Source: an uncultured Thermotogae bacterium (lineage in GTDB: Bacteria; Bipolaricaulota; Bipolaricaulia; UBA7950; UBA9294). Taken from it: 53,216 nucleotides of DNA. Below the pieces are notes generated by a model that saw nothing but the letters and a program-made list of their open reading frames with translations, was not told the DNA's origin and ran no database searches. The position numbers were made by a program, and so were the translations under genes. The stretch is taken from contig CAZKAB010000008.1 in the NCBI GenBank assembly GCA_964550615.1, positions 1-53,216 of the forward strand. The letters run 5' to 3'. Every line of letters starts with the position of its first letter. The stretch's first letter is position 1. This document shows, in pieces, positions 18,578 through 40,065 of the stretch.

Positions 18578-19402
18578 CTACAGGAATGGAGTGATCGTCG
18601 CTTCCACAAGGTTGTCGGGTAATCCGTTGTAGCGGATCACGCCGTAGCGGTCGATGAGGATGGTGTGCGGCACAAATGATATCTGGTAGATGTCGGACGG
18701 TCGTTCAGAGAGATGAGATGGCTGCCAGAGGTTGATGAAGCCACCTAATCCCTCTTTTGCCAGATAATTCGCCGCGTCCTGTGGTGAACCATTGAGGATG
18801 ACGGTTATCACCACCACATTGTCATCTGTGAGGTCCGCTCGCAAGTCTTCCAAATGGGGGAGGGATGCTAGACAATGGGAGCAGGTAGTGCGCCAGAACT
18901 CGAGGATGACGACCTTTCCCAAGTAGTCAGATAGGTTATGATTTGCTCCTTGGAGATCGGGAAGCGTGAACAAGGGGGCCGCCTGCCCGACTTGTAGACC
19001 TGTGGGGACGTCGGCCCGCTGATAGGCCTTGTCGCTTATCAGATTGTCACCCATCGATACATTAGCTTCGGAAACGGTTATCGTGCTTGTCGAGCTGTTG
19101 CCGGCGCCTGCATCATCGAAGACCATCAGTGTCACTTCATAATCACCCGGGGCGGCGTAGACGTGCGTCTTCTTGTTACCCGATCCGGTATAGCCATCGC
19201 CGAAAACCCACTGATACGAGACAATCCTGCCATCGGGATCTTCCGATGCAGAGGCATCGAAGCGGACACTGAGAGGCGTTCCTCCCCCCGAGGATACGGA
19301 GAAGTGCGGAAGTGGTTGGTTGTTTGCAAGTGCTGTTCCCGCCACAACAAAAAGCCCGATCCCAAGGATAATGGCCGCCAAGACAGATGTCCTTTGCCTC
19401 AT
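18578..19402 (-). CDS. Secreted PKD domain plus TlpA/redoxin domain protein
   Basis: Signal peptide; FDASASEDPDGRIVSYQWVFGDG (PKD); APLFTLPDL...FWRTTCSHC...FVPHTILID; SD GAGGTGA before ATG 19402. Confidence 0.85.
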   Translation of the reverse strand: MRQRTSVLAAIILGIGLFVVAGTALANNQPLPHFSVSSGGGTPLSVRFDASASEDPDGRIVSYQWVFGDGYTGSGNKKTHVYAAPGDYEVTLMVFDDAGAGNSSTSTITVSEANVSMGDNLISDKAYQRADVPTGLQVGQAAPLFTLPDLQGANHNLSDYLGKVVILEFWRTTCSHCLASLPHLEDLRADLTDDNVVVITVILNGSPQDAANYLAKEGLGGFINLWQPSHLSERPSDIYQISFVPHTILIDRYGVIRYNGLPDNLVEATITPFL

Positions 19403-19508
19403 ATCGATCACCTCGTTGGAAGATAATAGCACAAAAGTATCGGTGCACCAGCCGGTACGAAAGGCGCCCGGGCGGATTGCCGGTTTGACAGCCTAACCCG
19501 GGCGACTC

Positions 19509-22303: not shown

Positions 22304-23151
22304 CCCTCCTCCGGTTTCTCCGAGATCTCAAGCAGACACCGCTTGATCAGTACGTAGATGAGCTGTCTGCGGTAGTCCGCACTTGCGCGGCGGTCGTCTG
22401 CGACAACGGTCGTATTCCGTGCCACGCGGGCCGCTTTGTCAATCGTCTCAAGTGAAAGAGCTGCTCCAAGCAGGGCATTCTCAGCTTCAGGCAGCCTTGT
22501 CGCGAGATATGGAGTCCCTCCGACTGCAATGCGCGCTGTCGCACACTTACCTGAGTGTATCTCTACCGCGCAAGCGCAGTTGACAAGAGCGATATCGAGT
22601 TCCGTGCGACCGAATTTCTGGAACGCTGCAGCGCAGCCGGCAGAAGGAACGGGAATTACCACCTCGCGCACAATTGATCCTGTCAGCAGGGCGCGCGACG
22701 CATACAGATCGGACAAGGGAATTGGCTCTGCCTCCTTGTCGTGTAACACAACTTGCGCATTGAGTGCAATGAAAAGCGGGATAACATCCGACCACGAGTG
22801 TGCACTCACAATCGTTCCTCCCACGGTCGCAAGATTGCGTAGAAGTGGCGATCCCACCTTCCTTAACATCTGTCCGATAACTCCGCCCAGTACGCGACTG
22901 ATTGTCCGGTCGCCCAATAACTGCGCAAACGTTGTTGCAGCGCCGATCGCAATCGCAACAGGACGTTCCTCGACGTAGGAAAGGCCAAGCTTGGAGATAT
23001 CGATCAACGTTGTCACATCAGCGGGAAGGAAGCGCGCAAGATCGATCCCCCCACCGATGATGCGCGCCGTTTTTCCGCACTTTCGCAACAGGGCGTGCGC
23101 TTCATCCAGCGAGGATGGCCGCGCATAATCCATAAGTTGACTGCGAGACAC
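22300..23151 (-). CDS. Xanthine dehydrogenase family FAD-binding subunit
   Basis: YARPSSLDEA, IIGGGIDL, LRNLATVGG, DDRRASADYRR; GTG start after GGAGGGA. Confidence 0.9.
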   Translation of the reverse strand: MSRSQLMDYARPSSLDEAHALLRKCGKTARIIGGGIDLARFLPADVTTLIDISKLGLSYVEERPVAIAIGAATTFAQLLGDRTISRVLGGVIGQMLRKVGSPLLRNLATVGGTIVSAHSWSDVIPLFIALNAQVVLHDKEAEPIPLSDLYASRALLTGSIVREVVIPVPSAGCAAAFQKFGRTELDIALVNCACAVEIHSGKCATARIAVGGTPYLATRLPEAENALLGAALSLETIDKAARVARNTTVVADDRRASADYRRQLIYVLIKRCLLEISEKPEEG

Positions 23152-23434
23152 GATTCCCTCCTTGTTTTCTAGTCAGTTACAGTAGTTATCGCGATAGAAT
23201 GGCGCGAACTGCTATTGCTCGCGTGAAAATGTACACCAACTCGCAGATGGGAATCAAACGATACCAGCACTTCGCGTGTAAGTGTCTAATGGAAGCATAG
23301 AAGACGTCTCCGTCATACGTATCAAGATTTGCCGTTGCGCTTTGTGGTGCACGGCGGATAATTTGATTTGCAGTGTGGTGGACCGCTTGATTGAGGAGAG
23401 ACAGCAGGATGATAATGTGTAGAGGAGGCGGTAG

Positions 23435-23686
23435 GTGAATAAAATTGAGGTATTTGGCACGGGATGCCTTATGGGATGTTCTACATGCAAGATCTCTCCT
23501 GAAGCCGTGAGTAAGGCTCTCTCCGACCTCGGATTGACCGCGCGAGTGCTGCAGGTGAATGATATCGGGGATGCCCAAGCACGGGGTATCAAGCATCTGC
23601 CGGCACTGGTGATCGACGGCGTGGTGAAGGCGGAAGGAAAGGCATTGACTATTGACGAGATCAAGGCGATACTGCAACAAGCATGA
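23435..23686 (+). CDS. Small redox-active disulfide protein (TM0996/MTH895-like)
   Basis: IEVFGTGCLMGCSTC, PALVIDGVVKAEG; SD GAGGAGG. Confidence 0.85.
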   Translation: MNKIEVFGTGCLMGCSTCKISPEAVSKALSDLGLTARVLQVNDIGDAQARGIKHLPALVIDGVVKAEGKALTIDEIKAILQQA

Positions 23687-23717
23687 GAAGACAACAATCG
23701 TACCTTAGGAGGGAAAA

Positions 23718-24416
23718 GTGAACAGGATCATCGTCGGTTTGATGGCAATTGTCCTGCTGGCTGGGGTTTCGTTGCTGGCGGCGCCGGTGATAACGGCTGG
23801 CGGCGCAGTGTACGATTTCGGCACAGTGATAGAGGGAGCGTTCGTTACGCACACATTTGTGCTGACCAATTCAGGTGATGCGACGCTGACAATCACGCGC
23901 GTGACAACGAGCTGCGGTTGCACGACAACCGATCTCTCGCAGACCAGCCTTGCGCCCGGAGATTCGGTCAATCTCGACGTCAATTTCGACTCGGTCGGCT
24001 TTGGCGGCCAGACAGTGACCAAGCTCATCTATGTAGAGTCGAACGATCCCACACAACCGAAGTTCGTGCTTCAATTGAAGGGGAATGTGAATCGCGCGCA
24101 GCCATACAACATTGCCTGCGGCGACCTGAACTACCTCTTCTATCTGCTGGTCGATCTACGAGATCAAGATTCATACGCATCATCGCACATGCTTGGTGCG
24201 GTCAATATTCCCTACAGCGAGCTGACCGATTGGATGGACCGCCTCCCTACAGGGGTGCTGATCGTACTCTATGATGAAGATGGTACGAAGAGCGATCAAG
24301 CGGCGCAGATGCTGAATAAGAACGGGTTTCCTGAGGCGAAAAGCCTTCTGGGTGGGTTCGACGAGTGGACGCGGATATTCAAAGACAAGTTTGTCATCTC
24401 TGACCAAGATAAGTAA
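23718..24416 (+). CDS. Secreted DUF1573 plus rhodanese-like domain protein (copy 1)
   Basis: Signal peptide; FVLTNSGD...TSCGCT...LAPG; LVDLR...HMLGAVNIP...YDEDG...LLGGFDEW. Confidence 0.85.
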   Translation: MNRIIVGLMAIVLLAGVSLLAAPVITAGGAVYDFGTVIEGAFVTHTFVLTNSGDATLTITRVTTSCGCTTTDLSQTSLAPGDSVNLDVNFDSVGFGGQTVTKLIYVESNDPTQPKFVLQLKGNVNRAQPYNIACGDLNYLFYLLVDLRDQDSYASSHMLGAVNIPYSELTDWMDRLPTGVLIVLYDEDGTKSDQAAQMLNKNGFPEAKSLLGGFDEWTRIFKDKFVISDQDK

Positions 24417-24594
24417 GACAACAGAGCACTCTGGTGAGGCGAGGAAGGCGAAACAGCCACTCGCCTCATTCTGTGCACCGCAGAGACAAGCAGGCTCTGG
24501 TTGGAGGAACGGCGAAGCTACGTTACCATCTTTGGACCGCGCACGGCAAGGGCTCTACTTGTCCTGCTGGAATGAGTGGCGCTTACCGGTGTCC

Positions 24595-24624
24595 TTGCAG
24601 CTCGAATGAGCTTCAGTATAAATT
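24595..24624 (+). promoter_or_regulatory. Possible internal sigma70 promoter before copy 2
   Basis: TTGCAG (24595-600), 18 nt, TAAATT (24619-24); SD AAGGAGG before ATG 24661. Confidence 0.4.
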
Positions 24625-24660
24625 CTAAGGATCTCATCGCAATGACAAGGAGGATTTGAG

Positions 24661-25359
24661 ATGAAGAGAGCGGCGGTTCTCACGTTGGCGGTCTTTGTAT
24701 TTTGCAGTGTTGTTGTAAGCGCTACGCCGAAGATACAAGTGGATGCTGATACATACAACTTCGAAAGTGCCGTTGCCGGAACGTTTGTGACGCACAAGTT
24801 CGTTATCACCAACGTAGGTGACACTCCGTTATCGATCAGAAACGTTCGAACCAGCTGTGGATGCACCGTCGTTGATCTCACTCAGAAGGTTCTTGCGCCC
24901 GGGAAATCGGTTGATCTGGAAGCGAAACTAAACACAAACGGGTATCTTGGAAAGGTGGCGAAAACCGTATACGTGGAGAGCGATGATCAGACGAATCCGA
25001 CACTCGTCCTTCACCTGAGCGGTGTGGTTGAGAAGGCGAAGCCGTTCCACATGAGCGTCGGTGACCTTGAGTACATGTTCTACCTCCTAATCGATCTGCG
25101 TACGCCGGACGAGTATGCATCTGCGCATCTACTGGGAGCGATCAATGTCCCGTATGATGAGATCGGCGGTTGGATCGATCGCTTTCCCAAGAACGTCTTG
25201 CTGGTCTTCTACGACGAAGATGGAACCCTTGGAGATCAGGTGGCACAGATGCTGAACGCCGACGGTTTCGCAGATGCCAAGAGCCTGATGGGTGGTTTCG
25301 ACGAGTGGGCCGACGTGCTGGGCGATCAGTTTGTTGTCCATAGTATGGCCGATGAATAG
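24661..25359 (+). CDS. Secreted DUF1573 plus rhodanese-like domain protein (copy 2)
   Basis: Tandem paralog: TSCGCT, LIDLR, HLLGAINVP, YDEDG, LMGGFDEW. Confidence 0.85.
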   Translation: MKRAAVLTLAVFVFCSVVVSATPKIQVDADTYNFESAVAGTFVTHKFVITNVGDTPLSIRNVRTSCGCTVVDLTQKVLAPGKSVDLEAKLNTNGYLGKVAKTVYVESDDQTNPTLVLHLSGVVEKAKPFHMSVGDLEYMFYLLIDLRTPDEYASAHLLGAINVPYDEIGGWIDRFPKNVLLVFYDEDGTLGDQVAQMLNADGFADAKSLMGGFDEWADVLGDQFVVHSMADE

Positions 25360-25409
25360 GCGACGTGGCCGGCTGCGCGCAACGGACCGGCGAAAGGAGC
25401 GGCCCTAGA

Positions 25410-26504
25410 GTGAACAAAACAGTAGTTGTATTGATAGCGGTGCTGCTTTCGTATGCGTTTGTTGCAGCTGCAAGCGAAGTCAATATCGTCTATTTTTACG
25501 AAAACGGCTGTCCTCACTGTGCACGCATCGACGAATTTCTCCAGCGCATGCAGCAAACCTATGAGGAAATCGTGATCGACAGCTATGAGATTCATGCGGA
25601 AGGCGCTATTGCGCTCCTGCATCGCTTAGAAGCGTTGTACGGAGAAGAGCAGTTGGATGTGCCGATCGTGTTTATCGACGACCAGTGCTTCCACGGAGCA
25701 GGTCGGGCGGTTGAGTACAACATCGAACAGGAGATCAGGCAGGCGGTCGATAGCGGGTCGACGGCGCCGCTCGATCGACTGGCGCAATCTGAGCACGCGA
25801 ATTCCACTGCCACTCGCAAGCTCACGATACCTGCTGTTCTGGCCGCCGCTGCTGTCGATGCTGTCAATCCATGCGCATGCGCAGTGTTGATCCTACTTCT
25901 TGGAACGCTTATCGCGGCAGGAAAGCGGCGCAAGATAATCGGTGCCGGTCTCGCGTTTACCGCGGCCACGTACATCTCATACCTATTGATGGGCCTTGGG
26001 CTGTACACGGCCATTCAAGCGACGCGGCTGCAGCACATGATCTATCTTATCGTTGCCTGTCTGGCGATTGTCGTTGGTCTATGGGAGATGAAGGACTACC
26101 TGTGGTACGGGCGCTGGTTTACGATTGAAGTACCGAACTCATGGCGTCCGGCCCTTAAGCGGATCACGTCGAGCGTGACGTCCGTTCCAGGTGCATTTGC
26201 GGTCGGCTTCCTGGTAAGCCTATTCCTCCTGCCGTGTACGTCAGGTCCGTACATAATCATCCTCGGCCTCCTTGCACAGACGACGACGCGTGAGTACGCG
26301 ATCATGATGCTGGCACTCTACAATTTCATCTTCGTGCTTCCGTTCATCATCATCACGTTAGGGGTTGCCTTTGGTTTCACCACGACCGCGAGGGCGGAGA
26401 AGTGGCGACGTGAGCGATTGGACAAGCTGCATTTGATCACTGGTATTATCATGGTAGCGCTGGGGATCACCATGCTGGTTCTGATGCAGTTTGGATATAT
26501 GTAG
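25410..26504 (+). CDS. Thioredoxin-like domain fused to a CcdA/DsbD-beta membrane domain
   Basis: FYENGCPHC; TM domain with DAVNPCACAV and LLPCTSGPY; GTG 25410 after AAGGAG. Confidence 0.88.
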   Translation: MNKTVVVLIAVLLSYAFVAAASEVNIVYFYENGCPHCARIDEFLQRMQQTYEEIVIDSYEIHAEGAIALLHRLEALYGEEQLDVPIVFIDDQCFHGAGRAVEYNIEQEIRQAVDSGSTAPLDRLAQSEHANSTATRKLTIPAVLAAAAVDAVNPCACAVLILLLGTLIAAGKRRKIIGAGLAFTAATYISYLLMGLGLYTAIQATRLQHMIYLIVACLAIVVGLWEMKDYLWYGRWFTIEVPNSWRPALKRITSSVTSVPGAFAVGFLVSLFLLPCTSGPYIIILGLLAQTTTREYAIMMLALYNFIFVLPFIIITLGVAFGFTTTARAEKWRRERLDKLHLITGIIMVALGITMLVLMQFGYM

Positions 26505-26513
26505 GAGGATTGG

Positions 26514-27008
26514 ATGACGAAGAGACGTATATTGTTGATGCTTCTGGGTCTTGTTGCACTGATCGGCCCGGCATTATTTGCGCAGGTCCAGACGGAATCG
26601 CAGACACCCACGCCAATGATACTCGTATTCTACGAAGACGGCTGTCCAAACTGCATACGCATGGAAGGGCTCTTGGACAACCTCCTCACCGACCACGATG
26701 ACGTTACAGTTGTGCGCTATGAGATAAACGCTCCCGGAAGCACGGCGCTATTGTGGAAGCTATCTGCGCATTATGGGATTGTGACTACGCAGGTTCCAGT
26801 GATATTCGTGGGAGATAAGGCAATTGTGGGGGCGGGTCGGACACAGGAAATCACCTTGCGAACGGCAATCGGCGACTGTATCAGCCAAGGGTGTCCATCG
26901 CCGCTCGAATATGTAGAAGGAGGCTGGAGCGTACTGCGCGACCTGCTCGCCCTCGGCGCGTTCATCGGCCTGTTTGTTGCGCTGCTCCTATTTCAAAGCG
27001 GTTCATGA
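26514..27008 (+). CDS. Membrane-anchored thioredoxin/glutaredoxin-like protein
   Basis: Signal peptide; FYEDGCPNC, VPVIFVGD, C-x3-C (CISQGC); C-terminal TM helix. Confidence 0.8.
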   Translation: MTKRRILLMLLGLVALIGPALFAQVQTESQTPTPMILVFYEDGCPNCIRMEGLLDNLLTDHDDVTVVRYEINAPGSTALLWKLSAHYGIVTTQVPVIFVGDKAIVGAGRTQEITLRTAIGDCISQGCPSPLEYVEGGWSVLRDLLALGAFIGLFVALLLFQSGS

Positions 27009-27052
27009 GACGGTCACGCTCCGTCAATACGTTGGCTCGCTGATAGCGGGAG

Positions 27053-27868
27053 GTGATGGAGAGCGTGGATGAAACCAGATCCGGCCAATTTGCGAGCCTT
27101 TCCAATGAGCGTCTAATCGAACTTCTTCGGCACTTGGCTGATGAAGGCTGTGACTCGGCGTATGTCTCTCATCTGCGAGAAGAGATCATCCAACGCAACA
27201 TCGGGCTGGTGAAGGCGATTGCGATTCAGTTCCTCAATTCCGGCGAGCTGCTTGATGATCTGGTGCAGGCCGGCTACATTGGGCTGTTGAACGCGGTCAC
27301 CAACTTTGACTTGGCGCGCAACATTCTGTTCTCGACCTATGCCACCTACTTGGTCAGGGGGGAGATCAGGCACTACATTCGCGACAAGCACTCCACCATC
27401 CGCGTCCCCCAGTGGGCACAGTCAATGGGGAAGAAACTGAAAGAGGTGGAAGAGGCATTCTTTCAGGAGAACGGGCGGCCTCCGCTGATTGGTGAAATCG
27501 CCGAGCGCATGGAATTGGGTGAGAAACAAGTGATCGATCTGCTGCGCGGACGCAATGCGATGGCATACGTGTCAATAGACCAGGAGCGCCGTGGCCAGGA
27601 TCCACGTCCGCCGGCTCCGTCGCTGGATAGCATTTATCCTCGAGACGAATCGGTCTCCTCTGAACTAAACGTGCGCATAACAATTGCCATTGAGCAGCTG
27701 GTGGCGATACAACAGCAGGTGATCAGAGGTTTGTTCTATCAGGCGAAGAGCCAAAGCGAATTGGGCGAAGAACTGGGATTGTCTCAGCGTCAGGTGTCAC
27801 GGCTGAAAGAGAAAGCCTTGCTGCAGATGAAGGAAAGATTGGGCGGTGACGCAGACACCGGGGACTGA
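27053..27868 (+). CDS. SigB/SigF/SigG-type RNA polymerase sigma factor
   Basis: DDLVQAGYIGLLNAVTNFD, FSTYAT...GEIRHYIRDK...IRVP, region 4 SQSELGEELGLSQRQVSRL. Exact start (27053/27056/27065) uncertain. Confidence 0.9.
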   Translation: MMESVDETRSGQFASLSNERLIELLRHLADEGCDSAYVSHLREEIIQRNIGLVKAIAIQFLNSGELLDDLVQAGYIGLLNAVTNFDLARNILFSTYATYLVRGEIRHYIRDKHSTIRVPQWAQSMGKKLKEVEEAFFQENGRPPLIGEIAERMELGEKQVIDLLRGRNAMAYVSIDQERRGQDPRPPAPSLDSIYPRDESVSSELNVRITIAIEQLVAIQQQVIRGLFYQAKSQSELGEELGLSQRQVSRLKEKALLQMKERLGGDADTGD

Positions 27869-27901
27869 AGACCGCCGCTATTAGGTAGAATCATATTAGA
27901 G

Positions 27902-28192
27902 ATGTGTAATATGGCAACCGATCTTCTTGGGTTAATCGAGATTTCCATTGAGAGTCTGCGCCGCTGCATCGATTTCTTCGATGCGGCCAAACATACGAAC
28001 GGCGTCACGGAACTTGCCTCGGTGCTCGCCGAGATCAATAGATATCTGGAGCGGGTCGATGAAGATCCTCTGCTGAAAATCGCGTCCATCGATCGCGAGG
28101 GGATCGCGGATCGTCTACACGGGATCGAAGATGACCTGGCAGCGATCATCACAGACTTCGATACCGGAGAAGAGCAGGTTATCGAAGCATAG
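27902..28192 (+). CDS. Hypothetical small acidic helical protein
   Basis: 96-aa ORF filling the intergenic gap; TAGAAT at 27886-91 upstream; no family recognised. Confidence 0.55.
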   Translation: MCNMATDLLGLIEISIESLRRCIDFFDAAKHTNGVTELASVLAEINRYLERVDEDPLLKIASIDREGIADRLHGIEDDLAAIITDFDTGEEQVIEA

Positions 28193-28198
28193 AACGCG

Positions 28199-29626
28199 CT
28201 ATTGAGTCTCCGCCGTATAACCTGCGTCAGTTCGATTCAGCTTTATCTGCGTCGTTTGCCCCGATTGAACGTTGACGTTTTCCAGCACGAGGGGCGGGCT
28301 TGTTAGAATCACGACGCGATAGGTCCCTGATGGAAGCTGAGGTCCGGTCTCTCCCAATACTCCTTCGAACACTTTCTGCCCTTGATCGTCGAATACCTGA
28401 TAGGTCATTCGAATTGCGCTTTGCAGGGCAATACGCAACTGCTCGCTACTCTGAGCGGAATAGTAGGTGCCTTGAGTCGTCTCCGCGATCTGGCGCAACT
28501 GATCAACAGCACTGCTTTGTCCAGCGACATTGAATCCGACCACGTCTATGTGCAGGCTGGGCCAAGAAGCGACAAGCTCACGCGCGGCCGACACTGGGTT
28601 CCCATGACAAGTTTCCATGCCGTCGCTCACTAGGAGAACGAGCTTCGAATCAGCTGGATTGCTGAAGTCTCCCTCGGCTTGCTGTAATGTATACGCAATA
28701 GGAGTTGGTCCGCCGGTCTCAATCGCCTGAATCTGTGCATGCAGGGCAGCGCGATCGAGCGGCCCGACGGGGAGCAGAAGCCGGCTGAATTCACATCCGC
28801 CGAATATGCGCAATCCCACATCTATTCCTTCCGGGAGCTCCGAGACCACATCGGTTAAGACCTGCTTGGCGGCGACGATCTTCGTTGATGTCTCGAATGC
28901 CTCGTCCATGCTTGACGAGGTATCAAGGATGATCAACACATCCTCCGGGCCTCCGCCGACGGAAAGCGAGAGGGCGCCAGCCGGGAGGAGCTGTAGAGAT
29001 CCAAAATCACTGCCCTGTTGCTGCAGCGAGACAGCGTTCCCCATTGCGCCTACGGCATCGATACTCGGACCCGGACAAGGGGAGTGGTCCTCATCGGCCG
29101 GAACGTCTGACAGACGAACAAACCGGAACTCTTCGTTCGCAGCAGCATAGGGGCCGATATCGATTGCCGCCGGATAGCCGGTCACTTCCCCTACAAGCGT
29201 GAAGTTGATTCCGTCCGTGCTGATCTCGACACGACACTTCTTGTTATTGGTGATGTAAACGAACAAGTCGTTCCCCGGGCCGTCGACGAGTATGTTGTCG
29301 GTGAACTCAAGGACGAGGCTCCCTCGATTGTCAATCTCGCTTAGGCGGAATCCAAGCGCGACGGCACACGGAGCGCAGCCCGAGCACCCGCTGCAAGTCC
29401 CACTGGTGCAATCAGGCGGACCCAGAGCGGCGTTAGGATTGCCGTAAGCGCAGTCGACACAACTTGCTGCAGTGTAAGAGATCGCTCGGTCGGCGAACGA
29501 GACATCACCAAGCGGGAATGTCACCCCCGCATAAGTGGTCGACTGGGCGATCAGGGTTGTGGCCGCGATGGCGACCATCAGAAGTAGAATCGTACCCGTG
29601 ATCATTGCTCGATATCGGCTGCTCAT
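28199..29626 (-). CDS. Secreted Cys-rich beta-sandwich plus VWA domain protein
   Basis: Signal peptide; ALGPPD...DGPGNDLFVY...STDG...FRFVRL; MIDAS DTSSSM, GPTPI, SDGMETC; SD GGGGGTGA before ATG 29626. Confidence 0.8.
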   Translation of the reverse strand: MSSRYRAMITGTILLLMVAIAATTLIAQSTTYAGVTFPLGDVSFADRAISYTAASCVDCAYGNPNAALGPPDCTSGTCSGCSGCAPCAVALGFRLSEIDNRGSLVLEFTDNILVDGPGNDLFVYITNNKKCRVEISTDGINFTLVGEVTGYPAAIDIGPYAAANEEFRFVRLSDVPADEDHSPCPGPSIDAVGAMGNAVSLQQQGSDFGSLQLLPAGALSLSVGGGPEDVLIILDTSSSMDEAFETSTKIVAAKQVLTDVVSELPEGIDVGLRIFGGCEFSRLLLPVGPLDRAALHAQIQAIETGGPTPIAYTLQQAEGDFSNPADSKLVLLVSDGMETCHGNPVSAARELVASWPSLHIDVVGFNVAGQSSAVDQLRQIAETTQGTYYSAQSSEQLRIALQSAIRMTYQVFDDQGQKVFEGVLGETGPQLPSGTYRVVILTSPPLVLENVNVQSGQTTQIKLNRTDAGYTAETQ

Positions 29627-29727
29627 TGGATCACCCCCGATCGTCTGCAGCGTATTCGTCAAACCATCATAGGACGATTCGCGCTAAATGACAAGTAAAC
29701 AGAAGTCTTAACGCTGCGAATCGAATG

Positions 29728-29766: not shown

Positions 29767-29856
29767 GCCGAGGTGGCGGAATTGGCAGACGCGCATGGTT
29801 GAGGGCCATGTGGACCTAGAACGTCCGTGCGGGTTCAAGTCCCGCTCTCGGCACCA
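29767..29856 (+). tRNA. tRNA-Leu (anticodon GAG)
   Basis: Acceptor stem GCCGAGG/TCTCGGC; anticodon arm CATGG-TTGAGGG-CCATG; long variable arm; GTTCAAGT T-loop; encoded CCA. Confidence 0.97.
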
Positions 29857-37938: not shown

Positions 37939-40065
37939 ATGCACAGCAAAGTATATCTTGGTGCGATCCTGTTATTGCTGGGAGCGTTGTTCATCCCGCT
38001 CACAGCTTGGGGGGCATCGGCAGACTCTTCAAATCTTGTCTTCATTCTCGATGCGTCGAATAGCATGAACAAGCCGTTCGGCGATGTGACTCGTGTCGAT
38101 GCGGCTAAGGAAGCACTCAGCGAACTGCTAACCAGCATGCCTGCGGGAGAAGACGTCGGTCTAATCATCTACGGCAATCAGATCAACTACAAGAATGAGG
38201 CGGAGAGCTGTAATGACATCTCTTTCCCCTTTCCTGTTACTGCATTTGACGACAACGTGCGTAGTAAGATGATCGCTGCCATCAGCGGCGTGAGAGCGCA
38301 GGGCAAGACGCCGCTGGCAGATTCTCTCACGGAAGCGGCAAACGCACTTTCCGCGACCGGGCAGGGAGGCGTCATCGTGCTCCTTAGCGACGGTGAAGGA
38401 AACTGCGGCGGAGAGTCGGCTGTGGTTGCCGATATGATCGCCAAGATGGACCCTCAAATCACGGTTTATGTCGTCGGACTCGACATCGAGCAGGAGGCGG
38501 GTGACACGCTACGGACAATCGCTGATGCCACCAATGGCCGCTACTGGAGCGTGAACGAGGCAAGCGGGCTTTTGAGCGCACTCCTTTCCGCTGTTGGGCA
38601 GACTTCCGGCCAAGCGGAATCAACCGAGCCGAGAGGTGGAATCCCCGCCGGCTATGAGCGCTTCGGTGTAACAAACGTCATCTATGGCACAGAAGGGAAC
38701 GACGTTCTCTACGGCACCTCCGCCAACGATCTGATATTCGGCCTTGGCGGCGATGATTTCATCATCGGCTTGGGTGGAAATGACGTTCTCATTGGCGGTG
38801 CCGGCAATGATATCATAGAAGGCATGGACGGTTGCGACATCATCAGCGGCGGCGCCGGCGATGATACACTGTTCGGTGGAGCCGGAGACGATACGCTGTG
38901 TGGCGACGACGGCAACGATTCGCTGGAGGGCGAAGCCGGAAATGACGTCCTTGCTGGCGGCCCCGGAAACGACAAGCTCCTCGGCGGCGCGGGCCTTAAC
39001 CTCCTCTACGCAGGCACTGGTAATGACATACTCATGCAGGGGAAAATCATGCAGGATGCGTGTGCTGCGTGCCCGCTTCCCTTGCCGTCCAGCTCGTGTC
39101 CTCCTCCCGCGCCATGCAGTCCCCCTGCTCCATGCAACAGCGTCATGCCTACTCCCCCGACAACTTGCACACCTCCCGCTCCCCCTGCGCCTCCAACCAC
39201 TGGGTGTTGCTATCCGGCCATCAAGACGGTCGATGAAGGCTCGACCATTCAACTGCATGGGACCGTAACCGATTCGGATTGCGGAGCATGCAATATACGT
39301 TGGAGTGCTGAAGCGGGATCGTTCGATGATCCCACAAGCCTCGATCCAATGTATACCGCGCCAATGACCGATTCCTGCGACGGACGCGATGTCTGCGTTA
39401 CGCTGGTAGCCACTGATGGTTGCGGCGCAACGGGAAAGGATTCATTCGTGCTGCACATCAGAAACGTCAACAACCCGCCACGCGTCAATGCGGGCCCGGA
39501 TGTCGTTGTCGATGAAGGCGGGACGGTTCAACTTGCGCCCGCTGTCTCTGATCCGGATGGAGATGCACTCCGATATCACTGGAGCATCCCGTGCGGGGAC
39601 GGTGTGCTGACGGACGCGACTCTCCTTAACGCCGTGTACTCAGCGCCTCTAGTCGGCGCCTGCGATGGCGCAGACATAGTACTCAAGCTCACCGTCATCG
39701 ATTCCTGCGGTGCCAGTGCGGAGGATAGCGTTACCATTCACGTACGGAACTTGAACGCACCTCCGATCGTCGAGCTCGGCCCTGGCTTCTGCATGACTGA
39801 GGCGACTTCAGCCATACTGCACGCGGTCGCAAGCGACCCGGAATGCGGACCTCTTACCTACTACTGGACCGCATCCGCCGGCACATTCGATGATGCGTTC
39901 TCGGCCACTCCCTGTTTCAGCGCACCTAATGTCTCCAACTGTGACGGTGAGGACATTATGGTAAGCCTGACGGTGACCGACGTGTGCGGAGCGAGCGCAA
40001 GTGACTCGTATGTGATTCACGTGCAAAACGTCAACACGCCACCTGTTGTCAAGGCGGATCCGTAG
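37939..40065 (+). CDS. Secreted VWA + RTX-type Ca-binding repeats + Pro/Cys linker + 3 PKD/Ig-like repeats
   Basis: Signal peptide; MIDAS DASNSM; many GGxGxDxLx nonapeptides; three ~95-aa repeats with VDEG..W..G.F/L.D..Y/F.AP...CDG.D...DxCGA. Confidence 0.85.
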   Translation: MHSKVYLGAILLLLGALFIPLTAWGASADSSNLVFILDASNSMNKPFGDVTRVDAAKEALSELLTSMPAGEDVGLIIYGNQINYKNEAESCNDISFPFPVTAFDDNVRSKMIAAISGVRAQGKTPLADSLTEAANALSATGQGGVIVLLSDGEGNCGGESAVVADMIAKMDPQITVYVVGLDIEQEAGDTLRTIADATNGRYWSVNEASGLLSALLSAVGQTSGQAESTEPRGGIPAGYERFGVTNVIYGTEGNDVLYGTSANDLIFGLGGDDFIIGLGGNDVLIGGAGNDIIEGMDGCDIISGGAGDDTLFGGAGDDTLCGDDGNDSLEGEAGNDVLAGGPGNDKLLGGAGLNLLYAGTGNDILMQGKIMQDACAACPLPLPSSSCPPPAPCSPPAPCNSVMPTPPTTCTPPAPPAPPTTGCCYPAIKTVDEGSTIQLHGTVTDSDCGACNIRWSAEAGSFDDPTSLDPMYTAPMTDSCDGRDVCVTLVATDGCGATGKDSFVLHIRNVNNPPRVNAGPDVVVDEGGTVQLAPAVSDPDGDALRYHWSIPCGDGVLTDATLLNAVYSAPLVGACDGADIVLKLTVIDSCGASAEDSVTIHVRNLNAPPIVELGPGFCMTEATSAILHAVASDPECGPLTYYWTASAGTFDDAFSATPCFSAPNVSNCDGEDIMVSLTVTDVCGASASDSYVIHVQNVNTPPVVKADP
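38660..39030 (+). repeat. RTX (hemolysin-type calcium-binding) nonapeptide repeats
   Basis: GLGGDDFII, GLGGNDVLI, GGAGNDIIE, GGAGDDTLF, GGAGDDTLC, GEAGNDVLA, GGPGNDKLL; coordinates approximate. Confidence 0.85.

Follow-up and report, generated by a model that had tools for sequence, protein, structure and literature searches.

The stretch of DNA analysed here (the window, 53,216 nucleotides, contig CAZKAB010000008.1 of assembly GCA_964550615.1) derives from a salt-marsh metagenome and belongs to the genome, 87.5% complete, of an uncultured bacterium of the Bipolaricaulota. Seven co-oriented genes, g1 to g7, occupy positions 23435-28192, all on the plus strand, and are compiled below together with an RNA hairpin. 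The core of the row consists of two secreted DUF1573-rhodanese proteins (g2 and g3) and a membrane protein (g4) in which a glutaredoxin-like (Grx) domain is fused to a core of the CcdA/DsbD type; this Grx-CcdA protein probably supplies the DUF1573-rhodanese proteins with reductant.

23435..23686, plus strand: g1, 83 aa, cytoplasmic thioredoxin-like protein of the MTH895/ArsE family (TIGR00412, PF13192)
23718..24416, plus strand: g2, 232 aa, secreted or anchored protein, DUF1573 plus rhodanese homology domain (PF07610, PF00581)
24426..24476, plus strand: RNA hairpin beginning 10 nt past the g2 stop codon (from folding)
24661..25359, plus strand: g3, 232 aa, second secreted DUF1573(CGC)-rhodanese(Asp) protein (PF07610, PF00581)
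25365..26504, plus strand: g4, 379 aa, Grx-CcdA fusion (Glutaredoxin, DsbD_TM and PRK00293 matches)
26514..27008, plus strand: g5, 164 aa, membrane-anchored glutaredoxin-like CPNC protein (from paralogy to the N-terminal domain of g4)
27053..27868, plus strand: g6, sigma factor of the SigB/SigF/SigG type (TIGR02980, Sigma70 r2/r3/r4)
27902..28192, plus strand: g7, 96 aa, small protein (weak DUF5063 match)

The original prediction for this region had named five co-oriented genes with cysteine motifs, and both their coordinates and the motifs were verified from the translations. It had covered 23435-27008; the five genes stand, and the conserved block does not end at 27008 but continues through g6 and g7. 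According to a topology prediction from hydrophobicity and charge, g2, g3, g4 and g5 carry N-terminal hydrophobic segments. Because the key cysteines of DUF1573, g4 and g5 are invariant across homologues, their motifs are not a matter of chance.

DUF1573-rhodanese proteins and the Grx-CcdA fusion

Both DUF1573-rhodanese proteins exceed the cut-offs of their domain models, with 83.8 bits (g2) and 82.4 bits (g3) for PF07610 (cut-off 26.1), and 53.1 and 50.1 bits for PF00581 (cut-off 22.2). The two share 50% identity, the N-terminal hydrophobic segment of g2 comprises residues 1-32, and both align end to end with the NCBIfam model NF041425, named OS_HP2 (seleno)protein, at 89.1 and 88.2 bits, under its cut-off of 100. 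The SCGC motif is present in each of them, as the original prediction had it, with Cys 66/68 invariant in 64 homologues; it is a CxC motif (C-G-C), not CxxC. The AlphaFold2 model of g2 (predicted local distance difference test score, pLDDT, 91) places C66-G-C68 at the turn that joins strands 57-64 and 69-73 in a sandwich of the ASH/PapD type. Among solved structures its fold comes closest to 2qsv, from a P. gingivalis protein of unknown function; ASH/PapD-like domains rank next.

DUF1573 is, to our knowledge, a large family with no experimentally assigned function. It is found in Bacteroidota, Planctomycetota and many candidate phyla, and also in the form of selenoproteins; the pairing of selenocysteine with cysteine is a well-known sign that a site is redox-active or nucleophilic. 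Two selenoproteome reviews covering prokaryotes include DUF1573 (PF07610) proteins that bear UGC (PMC9312934, PMC13188914), to which the CGC of g2 and g3 is the counterpart; these forms speak for a reactive DUF1573 cysteine and make the redox activity presupposed for this loop plausible. The difference from the OS_HP2/DUF1573 selenoproteins is that g2 and g3 have cysteine instead of selenocysteine, together with a fused rhodanese homology domain. A selenocysteine form of DUF1573 within the phylum was also considered and dropped: the one match with an in-frame TGA proved on translation to have a plain stop codon.

The rhodanese part deserves equal attention. Asp 186 of g2 aligns with the catalytic cysteine in the YCRTGGRS loop of 3tp9, both g2 and g3 carry Asp at this position, and the same holds for at least 90% of 64 Bipolaricaulota homologues, as well as for both domains of the 350-aa forms with two rhodanese domains. 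Among the best sequence matches are the Cys-less first domain of 1yt8 and CEP41. With such inactive rhodanese domains (the N-terminal domain of tandem rhodaneses, CEP41) g2 and g3 have in common the Asp in place of the active-site Cys and an acidic YD[ED]D loop, and they differ in their export and in the Ig-like domain, itself bearing Cys, to which they are fused. Since Asp replaces the catalytic Cys, the domain cannot carry persulfide sulfur, and a catalytic rhodanese sulfurtransferase was ruled out on these grounds; judged by fold and sequence only, it is a rhodanese homology domain.

The Grx-CcdA protein g4 starts with a signal or transmembrane (TM) segment, which leads into an external glutaredoxin-like domain with the motif GCPHC (Cys 49/52) and then into a six-helix core of the CcdA/DsbD type that contains VNPC (Cys 170) and LLPC (Cys 291). 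Matches were obtained to Glutaredoxin (30 bits) and to DsbD (PRK00293, E 3.4e-11 over residues 139-371), and many homologues at ≈ 50% identity have precomputed matches to PF02683, PF11139 or PF13386. Across 44 homologues C49, C170 and C291 are invariant and GCPHC is the family consensus; N168-P169-C170 and P290-C291, the Pro-Cys pairs that a CcdA is expected to have in helices one and four of its core, are likewise invariant, and six TM-like segments follow the external domain. The AlphaFold2 model has a pLDDT of 86.6. The true start of g4 is probably the GTG at 25410, because AAGGAG is located 9 nt upstream of it and P0121, a homologue of 97% identity, is 364 aa long. No other DsbD_TM-like gene was found in the genome to which the window belongs.

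The anchored paralogue g5 (GCPNC, Cys 44/47) gives only weak Glutaredoxin-like matches in database searches, and shares 36% identity over 97 aa with residues 41-137 of g4, that is, with the external domain. Its TM-like segments cover residues 4-27 (signal peptide) and 138-164 (C-terminal anchor). C44/C47 are present in 18 of 18 homologues, a second pair, C122/C127, in 15 of 18, and g5 comes after g4 in most Bipolaricaulota loci. In a well-supported clade (loci L005, L037, L039-L041, L044) a DUF1573 gene with two rhodanese domains is followed by a g5-like gene with no Grx-CcdA between them; there, the anchored paralogue would therefore draw its electrons elsewhere.

The cytoplasmic member of the row, g1, has neither a signal peptide nor a TM-like segment. 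It reaches 65.3 bits for the MTH895/ArsE model TIGR00412 (cut-off 62) and also matches Thioredoxin_3 (PF13192). Its motif GTGCLMGCSTC places Cys 11, 15 and 18 in a C-x3-C-x2-C arrangement, a spacing familiar from Fe-S cluster sites of the radical-S-adenosylmethionine type. The canonical CPKC of relatives corresponds to C15/C18, and Cys 11 is an extra residue within a 4-residue insert before the CxxC: relatives read GCPKC, the clade of the window GC[LP]xGC[SP][ST]C (compared in L008-L011, L014, L022, L027, L028). Going by this motif, g1 may bind a metal or a cluster instead of working as a plain dithiol. Of 74 testable loci, 10 have it directly 5' of a g2-type gene, the two overlapping by 4 bp in L009-L011, and g1-type genes of relatives travel with g2-type genes, in L077 also with an ArsP_1 permease. 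The latter locus (L077:5211-8987, Acetothermia bacterium 64_32) has the order ArsR, ArsP_1 permease (PF03773), DGC-domain protein, small Fe-S protein, g1-type gene and DUF1573 gene; its thioredoxin is canonical and MTH895-like, its DUF1573 protein has two Asp-rhodanese domains, and the gene order links the widespread pair of permease and thioredoxin to DUF1573.

Conservation, paralogue clades and transcription units

Co-occurrence was scored in 121 evenly sampled Bipolaricaulota genomes, with statistics uncorrected for phylogeny; for neighbourhoods 79 loci were fetched, and adjacency to g4 or g5 was scored for the 62 DUF1573-rhodanese genes that have 1.5 kb or more of sequence on their downstream side. 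DUF1573-rhodanese genes are present in 99 genomes, often in 2-9 copies, and g4-like genes in 103. Both occur together in 95 genomes, DUF1573-rhodanese alone in 4, g4 alone in 8 and neither in 14, which corresponds to an odds ratio of 41.6 (p 1e-9, phylogeny uncorrected). Directly 3' of the DUF1573-rhodanese gene, g4 is found in 24 of the 62 cases and a g5-like gene in 8, and the synteny across the Bipolaricaulota that the original prediction had proposed as a check is borne out for DUF1573-rhodanese and Grx-CcdA. A number of loci (L008, L012, L015-L018, L060, L065, L067 and others) nest within Bipolaricaulota clades under the labels uncultured Thermotogae, Neomarinimicrobiota, Atribacteria or Caldisericota; some of them share the flanking VWA/plsX synteny, and they are probably mislabelled or misbinned metagenome-assembled genomes.

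Outside the phylum, the Grx-CcdA fusion family comprises at least 1359 matching 90%-identity clusters, with members ≈ 50% identical in KSB1, Zhuqueibacterota and DPANN archaea; the two archaeal-type contexts inspected have Grx-CcdA without a DUF1573 gene. In Zhuqueibacterota (L087), in KSB1 (L090) and in a third genome (L094) a DUF1573-rhodanese gene is situated immediately upstream of Grx-CcdA, at only ≈ 32-35% identity to g2. These foreign copies carry AAC or SSC in place of the CGC, such that only the equivalent of C68 is universal, and the catalytic position of their rhodanese domain is occupied by Cys in Zhuqueibacterota and by Ser in KSB1 and G125. As only 2 of 81 genomes of a foreign phylum possess DUF1573-rhodanese, the pair behaves as a mobile two-gene cassette, and the recurrence of this cassette outside the Bipolaricaulota constitutes the strongest argument for a functional link between its two members.

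In a maximum-likelihood tree (83 sequences) the DUF1573-rhodanese paralogues fall into clades that each share one type of neighbour: g1, Grx-CcdA (g4), g5, a TlpA-like redoxin, or a Cd/Zn/Pb-type P1B ATPase together with an ArsR/SmtB regulator. The protein g2 groups with L008-L011, all g1-linked; the nearest neighbour of g3 is L034, which is g4-linked, as are several further clades; one clade is linked to g5 alone, and the foreign clade is entirely g4-linked. Within a clade of 100/100 support a P-type ATPase is found directly upstream wherever upstream sequence exists (four of six), and the clade of L049, L056 and L069 displays a row of ArsR (divergent), ATPase, DUF1573-rhodanese and Grx-CcdA. 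A Cd/Zn/Pb-type P1B ATPase directly upstream of DUF1573-rhodanese was recorded in 9 loci. These ATPases score 496-516 bits for the cadmium-family model TIGR01512 (cut-off 313.5) and combine an N-terminal CxxC domain with CPC in TM4, Lys in TM5 and DxG in TM6, the Zn/Cd/Pb (P1B-2) signature. Regulators of the ArsR/SmtB type, which passed the metalloregulator model and in some cases have a CVC motif, are located in or beside the cluster in 17 fetched loci. A TlpA-like redoxin is encoded directly upstream of the seemingly orphan paralogues L029 and L058. The identified neighbours are thus mostly thiol-redox proteins, soft-metal pumps and metalloregulators, with unrelated neighbours in L018 and L021, and the earlier hint of metal(loid) handling gains support from the ArsR/SmtB regulators and Cd/Zn/Pb-type ATPases in the clusters of relatives. 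The window itself encodes a secreted PKD protein with an AhpC/TSA (TlpA-like) redoxin domain at 18578-19432 (minus strand), 45% identical to the TlpA-like gene product directly upstream of the paralogue in L058.

With respect to transcription, the five genes had been envisaged as a single unit, an arrangement that the region between g2 and g3 speaks against. The hairpin after g2 (dG -29.6 kcal/mol, z -4.36, 0 of 200 shuffles folding as well) has no U-tract and is probably a transcript end or a processing site between two modules; the closest relative, L008, has a hairpin of other sequence at the same place (dG -30, z -4.2). The g2-g3 gap measures 244 bp (24417-24660; 63 bp in L008) and holds, upstream of g3, a plausible TTGCAG-16-TATAAA element and a Shine-Dalgarno site. 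The short spacers g1-g2, g3-g4, g5-g6 (45 nt) and g6-g7 are unstructured (z -0.3 to +1.2). A consensus terminator scan of 22800-28400 returned none, the hairpin having come from folding, and an Rfam scan gave no RNA family in the cluster, its only match being a tRNA at 29767-29853.

In L014, L022, L027 and L028 an ArsR/SmtB-type gene occupies the position of the g2-g3 gap, or stands between g1 and the DUF1573 gene (L014:1228-1635, L022:7500-7964, L027:4963-5325, L028:7624-8004; a CVC motif was seen in L003). The window and L008 have lost this gene, which close relatives keep; a tblastn search for a remnant in the gap with the ArsR of L003 found no match on the contig of the window. Relatives have g1-g2 alone (L009-L011) or g3-g4-g5 alone. 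Because of the strong hairpin, the 244-bp gap and the ArsR/SmtB gene at this place in relatives, the row is probably divided into two units, g1-g2 and g3-g7. Metatranscriptome data provided five short contigs on g2, g3 and g4 (at g3, 25009-25364), by which no junction is informatively spanned.

The sigma factor g6 (180.6 bits for TIGR02980, below the cut-off of 234, with Sigma70 r2/r3/r4 domains) comes after g5 in more than 20 Bipolaricaulota loci and probably belongs to the same unit. Homologues of g7, 87-106 aa in length, are found behind g6 in every locus with g6 downstream of g5, and the block g4-g5-g6-g7, which recurs in more than 20 loci, is followed by a VWA gene and plsX on the opposite strand. 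It may be that g7 is a regulator of the sigma factor, and that both, conserved with the block as they are, couple it to an envelope stress response. An RsbW/RsbV-type partner was not seen next to g6 and g7. The VWA gene of the window (28199-29662, minus strand) points towards g7, and its synteny with the cluster holds across the phylum; its secreted product is Cys-rich (Cys 85, 90, 93, 96, 99), and a second, paralogous VWA match is present at 38032-38604.

A proposed extracytoplasmic reductant relay and its alternatives

Taken as a whole, the cluster is best read as an extracytoplasmic reductant relay dedicated to DUF1573-rhodanese effectors, a reading to which we assign a probability of roughly 60%. 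That the relay serves the DUF1573-rhodanese proteins as dedicated partners is its firmer part and can be called probable; that its purpose is the handling of soft metals or metalloids is a tentative suggestion. The row would be composed of two abutting modules, module A with g1-g2 and module B with g3-g4-g5 running into g6 and g7. In module B, the CcdA-type core of g4 would take reducing equivalents from a cytoplasmic dithiol donor and convey them, via the cysteines of NPC and LPC, across the membrane to its own external CPHC domain, to the anchored paralogue g5, or to both. These external domains would then keep the loop C66-G-C68 of the DUF1573-rhodanese protein reduced, or free it of mixed disulfides or adducts in each turnover. 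Module A would pair the second paralogue, g2, with the cytoplasmic MTH895-like thioredoxin g1. The DUF1573-rhodanese proteins would form the working end of the relay rather than mere clients, presumably as thiol-based binders or carriers of a thiophilic species at the cell surface, likeliest a soft metal or metalloid, and their rhodanese domain, with Asp for Cys and an acidic YDEDG loop, may act as a non-catalytic binding or docking module. The direction of electron flow and the substrate are inferred, the former from the known behaviour of CcdA and DsbD. The original prediction had drawn a complete chain from the cytoplasm to the surface with the two DUF1573 proteins as end clients: the dedicated partnership with CcdA holds (co-conserved, adjacent, and present as a cassette in three foreign genomes), whereas the position of g1 is all that suggests it could be the cytoplasmic donor.

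Several observations weigh against this reading. The support comes from sequence, structure prediction and gene context, and the co-occurrence statistics ignore shared ancestry. The match of g4 to DsbD_TM (PF02683), with 25.4 bits over model positions 5-215 of 219, is just below the cut-off of 27.1, and a Foldseek search of the g4 model against the PDB gave nothing at E <= 0.001 and no CcdA in the top 50, the only matches being of thioredoxin or glutaredoxin fold to the N-terminal domain. Its CPHC is the dipeptide of DsbA, thus of the oxidising type. The tight coupling of g1, which is cytoplasmic, to g2, which is exported, is left unexplained. The window itself is without a metal pump or an ArsR gene, and the best matches to a CadA-type ATPase in its own genome are only 31-40% identical, with no close orthologue among them; what ties the cluster to metals thus comes from paralogues of other genomes. 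Finally, the RNA evidence amounts to a handful of 151-nt contigs and is silent on operon structure.

The main alternative, in our view an unlikely one, is an extracytoplasmic sulfur carrier in the manner of SoxY or Sud, where in sulfidic sediment the DUF1573 cysteine would bear sulfane sulfur or a thiosulfonate adduct and Grx-CcdA would strip dead-end adducts, as SoxV and SoxS/SoxW do for SoxY. The salt-marsh origin and the rhodanese fold would suit such a role, as would the Zhuqueibacterota copy, which retains the rhodanese Cys, and the single DUF1573 cysteine of the foreign copies, which fits mixed-disulfide or persulfide chemistry with a glutaredoxin-type partner; in addition, a PKD protein encoded directly upstream of a DUF1573-rhodanese paralogue (L038:1595-2461) ends in ...SSGGCGCGG, recalling the GGCGG arm of SoxY. 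Against this, 90% or more of the 64 homologues have Asp as the catalytic residue, as have both domains of the forms with two rhodanese domains, and KSB1 and G125 have Ser. Furthermore, genes for sulfur oxidation or for a polysulfide reductase were not seen next to any of the paralogues, where metal pumps, metalloregulators and redoxins recur. The Sox system of SoxV and SoxS/SoxW acting on SoxY does share the principle that a CcdA-type protein and periplasmic thioredoxins regenerate the single reactive Cys of an Ig-like carrier. It differs in that here sox genes are absent, that the DUF1573 cysteine is placed in an internal beta-hairpin loop instead of a C-terminal GGCGG arm, and that the rhodanese domain has no sulfur-carrying Cys.

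Somewhat less likely still is a generic supply of reductant to the envelope, chiefly for cytochrome c maturation, with g4 as a System II CcdA, g5 as a ResA/CcsX-like reductase of apocytochromes and the DUF1573 proteins as mere neighbours. The genome of the window contains CcsA (155 bits), a ResB-like open reading frame (ORF) and a five-haem protein, with g4 as its only CcdA-like gene, which again counts against a dedicated relay. On contig C46 of this genome (C46:4139-11540) there are a 645-aa ORF with five CxxCH motifs and a CcoO-like N-terminus, a 769-aa P-type ATPase, the ResB-like ORF and CcsA; because CcsA is present in only 29 of the 121 genomes of the phylum, this lineage may be one that respires with c-type cytochromes. 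The distribution of g4, however, does not track CcsA (PF01578): 83 of the 103 genomes with g4 have no PF01578, 9 of the 29 genomes with PF01578 have no g4, and the odds ratio is 0.24. In several genomes with CcsA, g4 has no more than weak matches, to its CcdA core and at ≈ 30-36% identity, and in the loci seen g4 is never found beside ccs genes; it stands beside DUF1573-rhodanese in three lineages outside the phylum. Cytochrome c maturation as the main explanation was rejected for this reason, and a side role of g4 in that process in the organism itself is possible.

Oxidative protein folding would invert the scheme: secreted proteins, the CGC loop included, would receive disulfides from the DsbA-type domains of g4 and g5, and the CcdA-like core would move electrons inward in place of DsbB or VKOR. 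It is consistent with this that CPHC, the consensus of the external domain of g4, is also the active-site dipeptide of DsbA, and that neither DsbB nor VKOR was found in the genome. Oxidising CxxC partners, such as DsbC and ScsC, are kept reduced by proteins of the CcdA/DsbD/ScsB type, and every characterised protein of this type known to us moves reductant outward. The foreign DUF1573 copies with their single cysteine cannot form an intramolecular disulfide, the selenocysteine forms argue for a nucleophilic, reduced site, and we consider this explanation improbable. The parallel to arsEFG-type organoarsenical detoxification drawn in the original prediction, with g1 as ArsE and g4 as an ArsG-type efflux permease, is the least probable and was rejected: g1 does pass TIGR00412, g4 has a weak ArsG match over nearly its whole length, ArsR-type regulators occur in orthologous clusters and the ArsP_1 permease beside g1 in L077, but g4 attains 24.2 bits against a cut-off of 200 for the ArsG model NF040495, neither an ArsF-like nor another ars gene was found in the cluster, g4 possesses the external CPHC domain and the two Pro-Cys motifs of an electron-transferring CcdA, and the pumps of the relatives are of the Cd/Zn/Pb type.

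Among known systems, the proposed relay most resembles Scs (ScsB/ScsC) and the action of DsbD-DsbC on CueP in Salmonella, in which, as is established, a membrane protein of the DsbD/CcdA type likewise passes reductant outward to a thioredoxin-fold protein whose CxxC is rather oxidising and which maintains a secreted metal-handling protein with its cysteines reduced; genes for heavy-metal export and metalloregulators are associated with both. Here, in contrast, the part of the thioredoxin-fold protein is played by a glutaredoxin-like domain at the N-terminal end of a minimal CcdA core to which it is fused, there is an extra anchored paralogue (g5), the client would be a DUF1573 Ig-like protein with a Cys-less rhodanese domain unrelated to CueP, and the pumps are of the Cd/Zn/Pb instead of the copper type. 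The match to ScsC (4gxz) has an E of 0.08 and is confined to the surroundings of the CxxC, and g4 is devoid of the N-terminal domains of ScsB. With CcdA-ResA/StoA of Bacillus and DsbD of E. coli, g4 has in common the two Pro-Cys motifs, the six-helix core and an external thioredoxin-fold acceptor, but neither cytochrome c maturation nor sporulation is linked to it. DsbD has its Ig-like domain, nDsbD, at the N-terminus and its thioredoxin-like domain at the C-terminus, whereas g4 has the acceptor domain at the N-terminus and the Ig-like Cys protein, DUF1573, is separate and secreted. The system thus appears CcdA/DsbD/Scs-like in its logic; by sequence it falls outside the Scs and Sox families, and g4 is a borderline match to DsbD_TM.

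A bolder and rather speculative extension can be formulated, in which DUF1573 is a widespread Ig-fold carrier with a single nucleophile (Cys or Sec), loaded by P1B-type pumps or by scavenging at the surface and reset by a 'split DsbD'. Grx-CcdA would represent the membrane and thioredoxin parts of the latter, DUF1573 would replace the Ig-like nDsbD, and the Cys-less acidic rhodanese domain would be a docking site for metal or partner. If true, this would provide the first function for a large DUF with selenoprotein members, and the Bipolaricaulota clusters and the cassette of KSB1/Zhuqueibacterota would be tied together.

A literature search found no description of the cluster. Compared with the literature found, the dedicated pairing of Grx-CcdA with DUF1573-rhodanese, the fusion to an Asp-rhodanese domain and the link to Cd/Zn/Pb-type pumps are new. 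A minimal, fused Grx-CcdA exists at ≈ 50% identity across Bipolaricaulota, candidate phyla of the FCB group and DPANN archaea, and, despite the loss of its Cys, the rhodanese domain is still strongly constrained outside the cell. The relay as proposed would mean that CcdA-type proteins of cytochrome-free anaerobes serve clients besides cytochrome c maturation. For DUF1573 itself, the dedicated, co-transferred electron supply and the recurrent heavy-metal neighbours give a concrete hypothesis that is testable with recombinant proteins.

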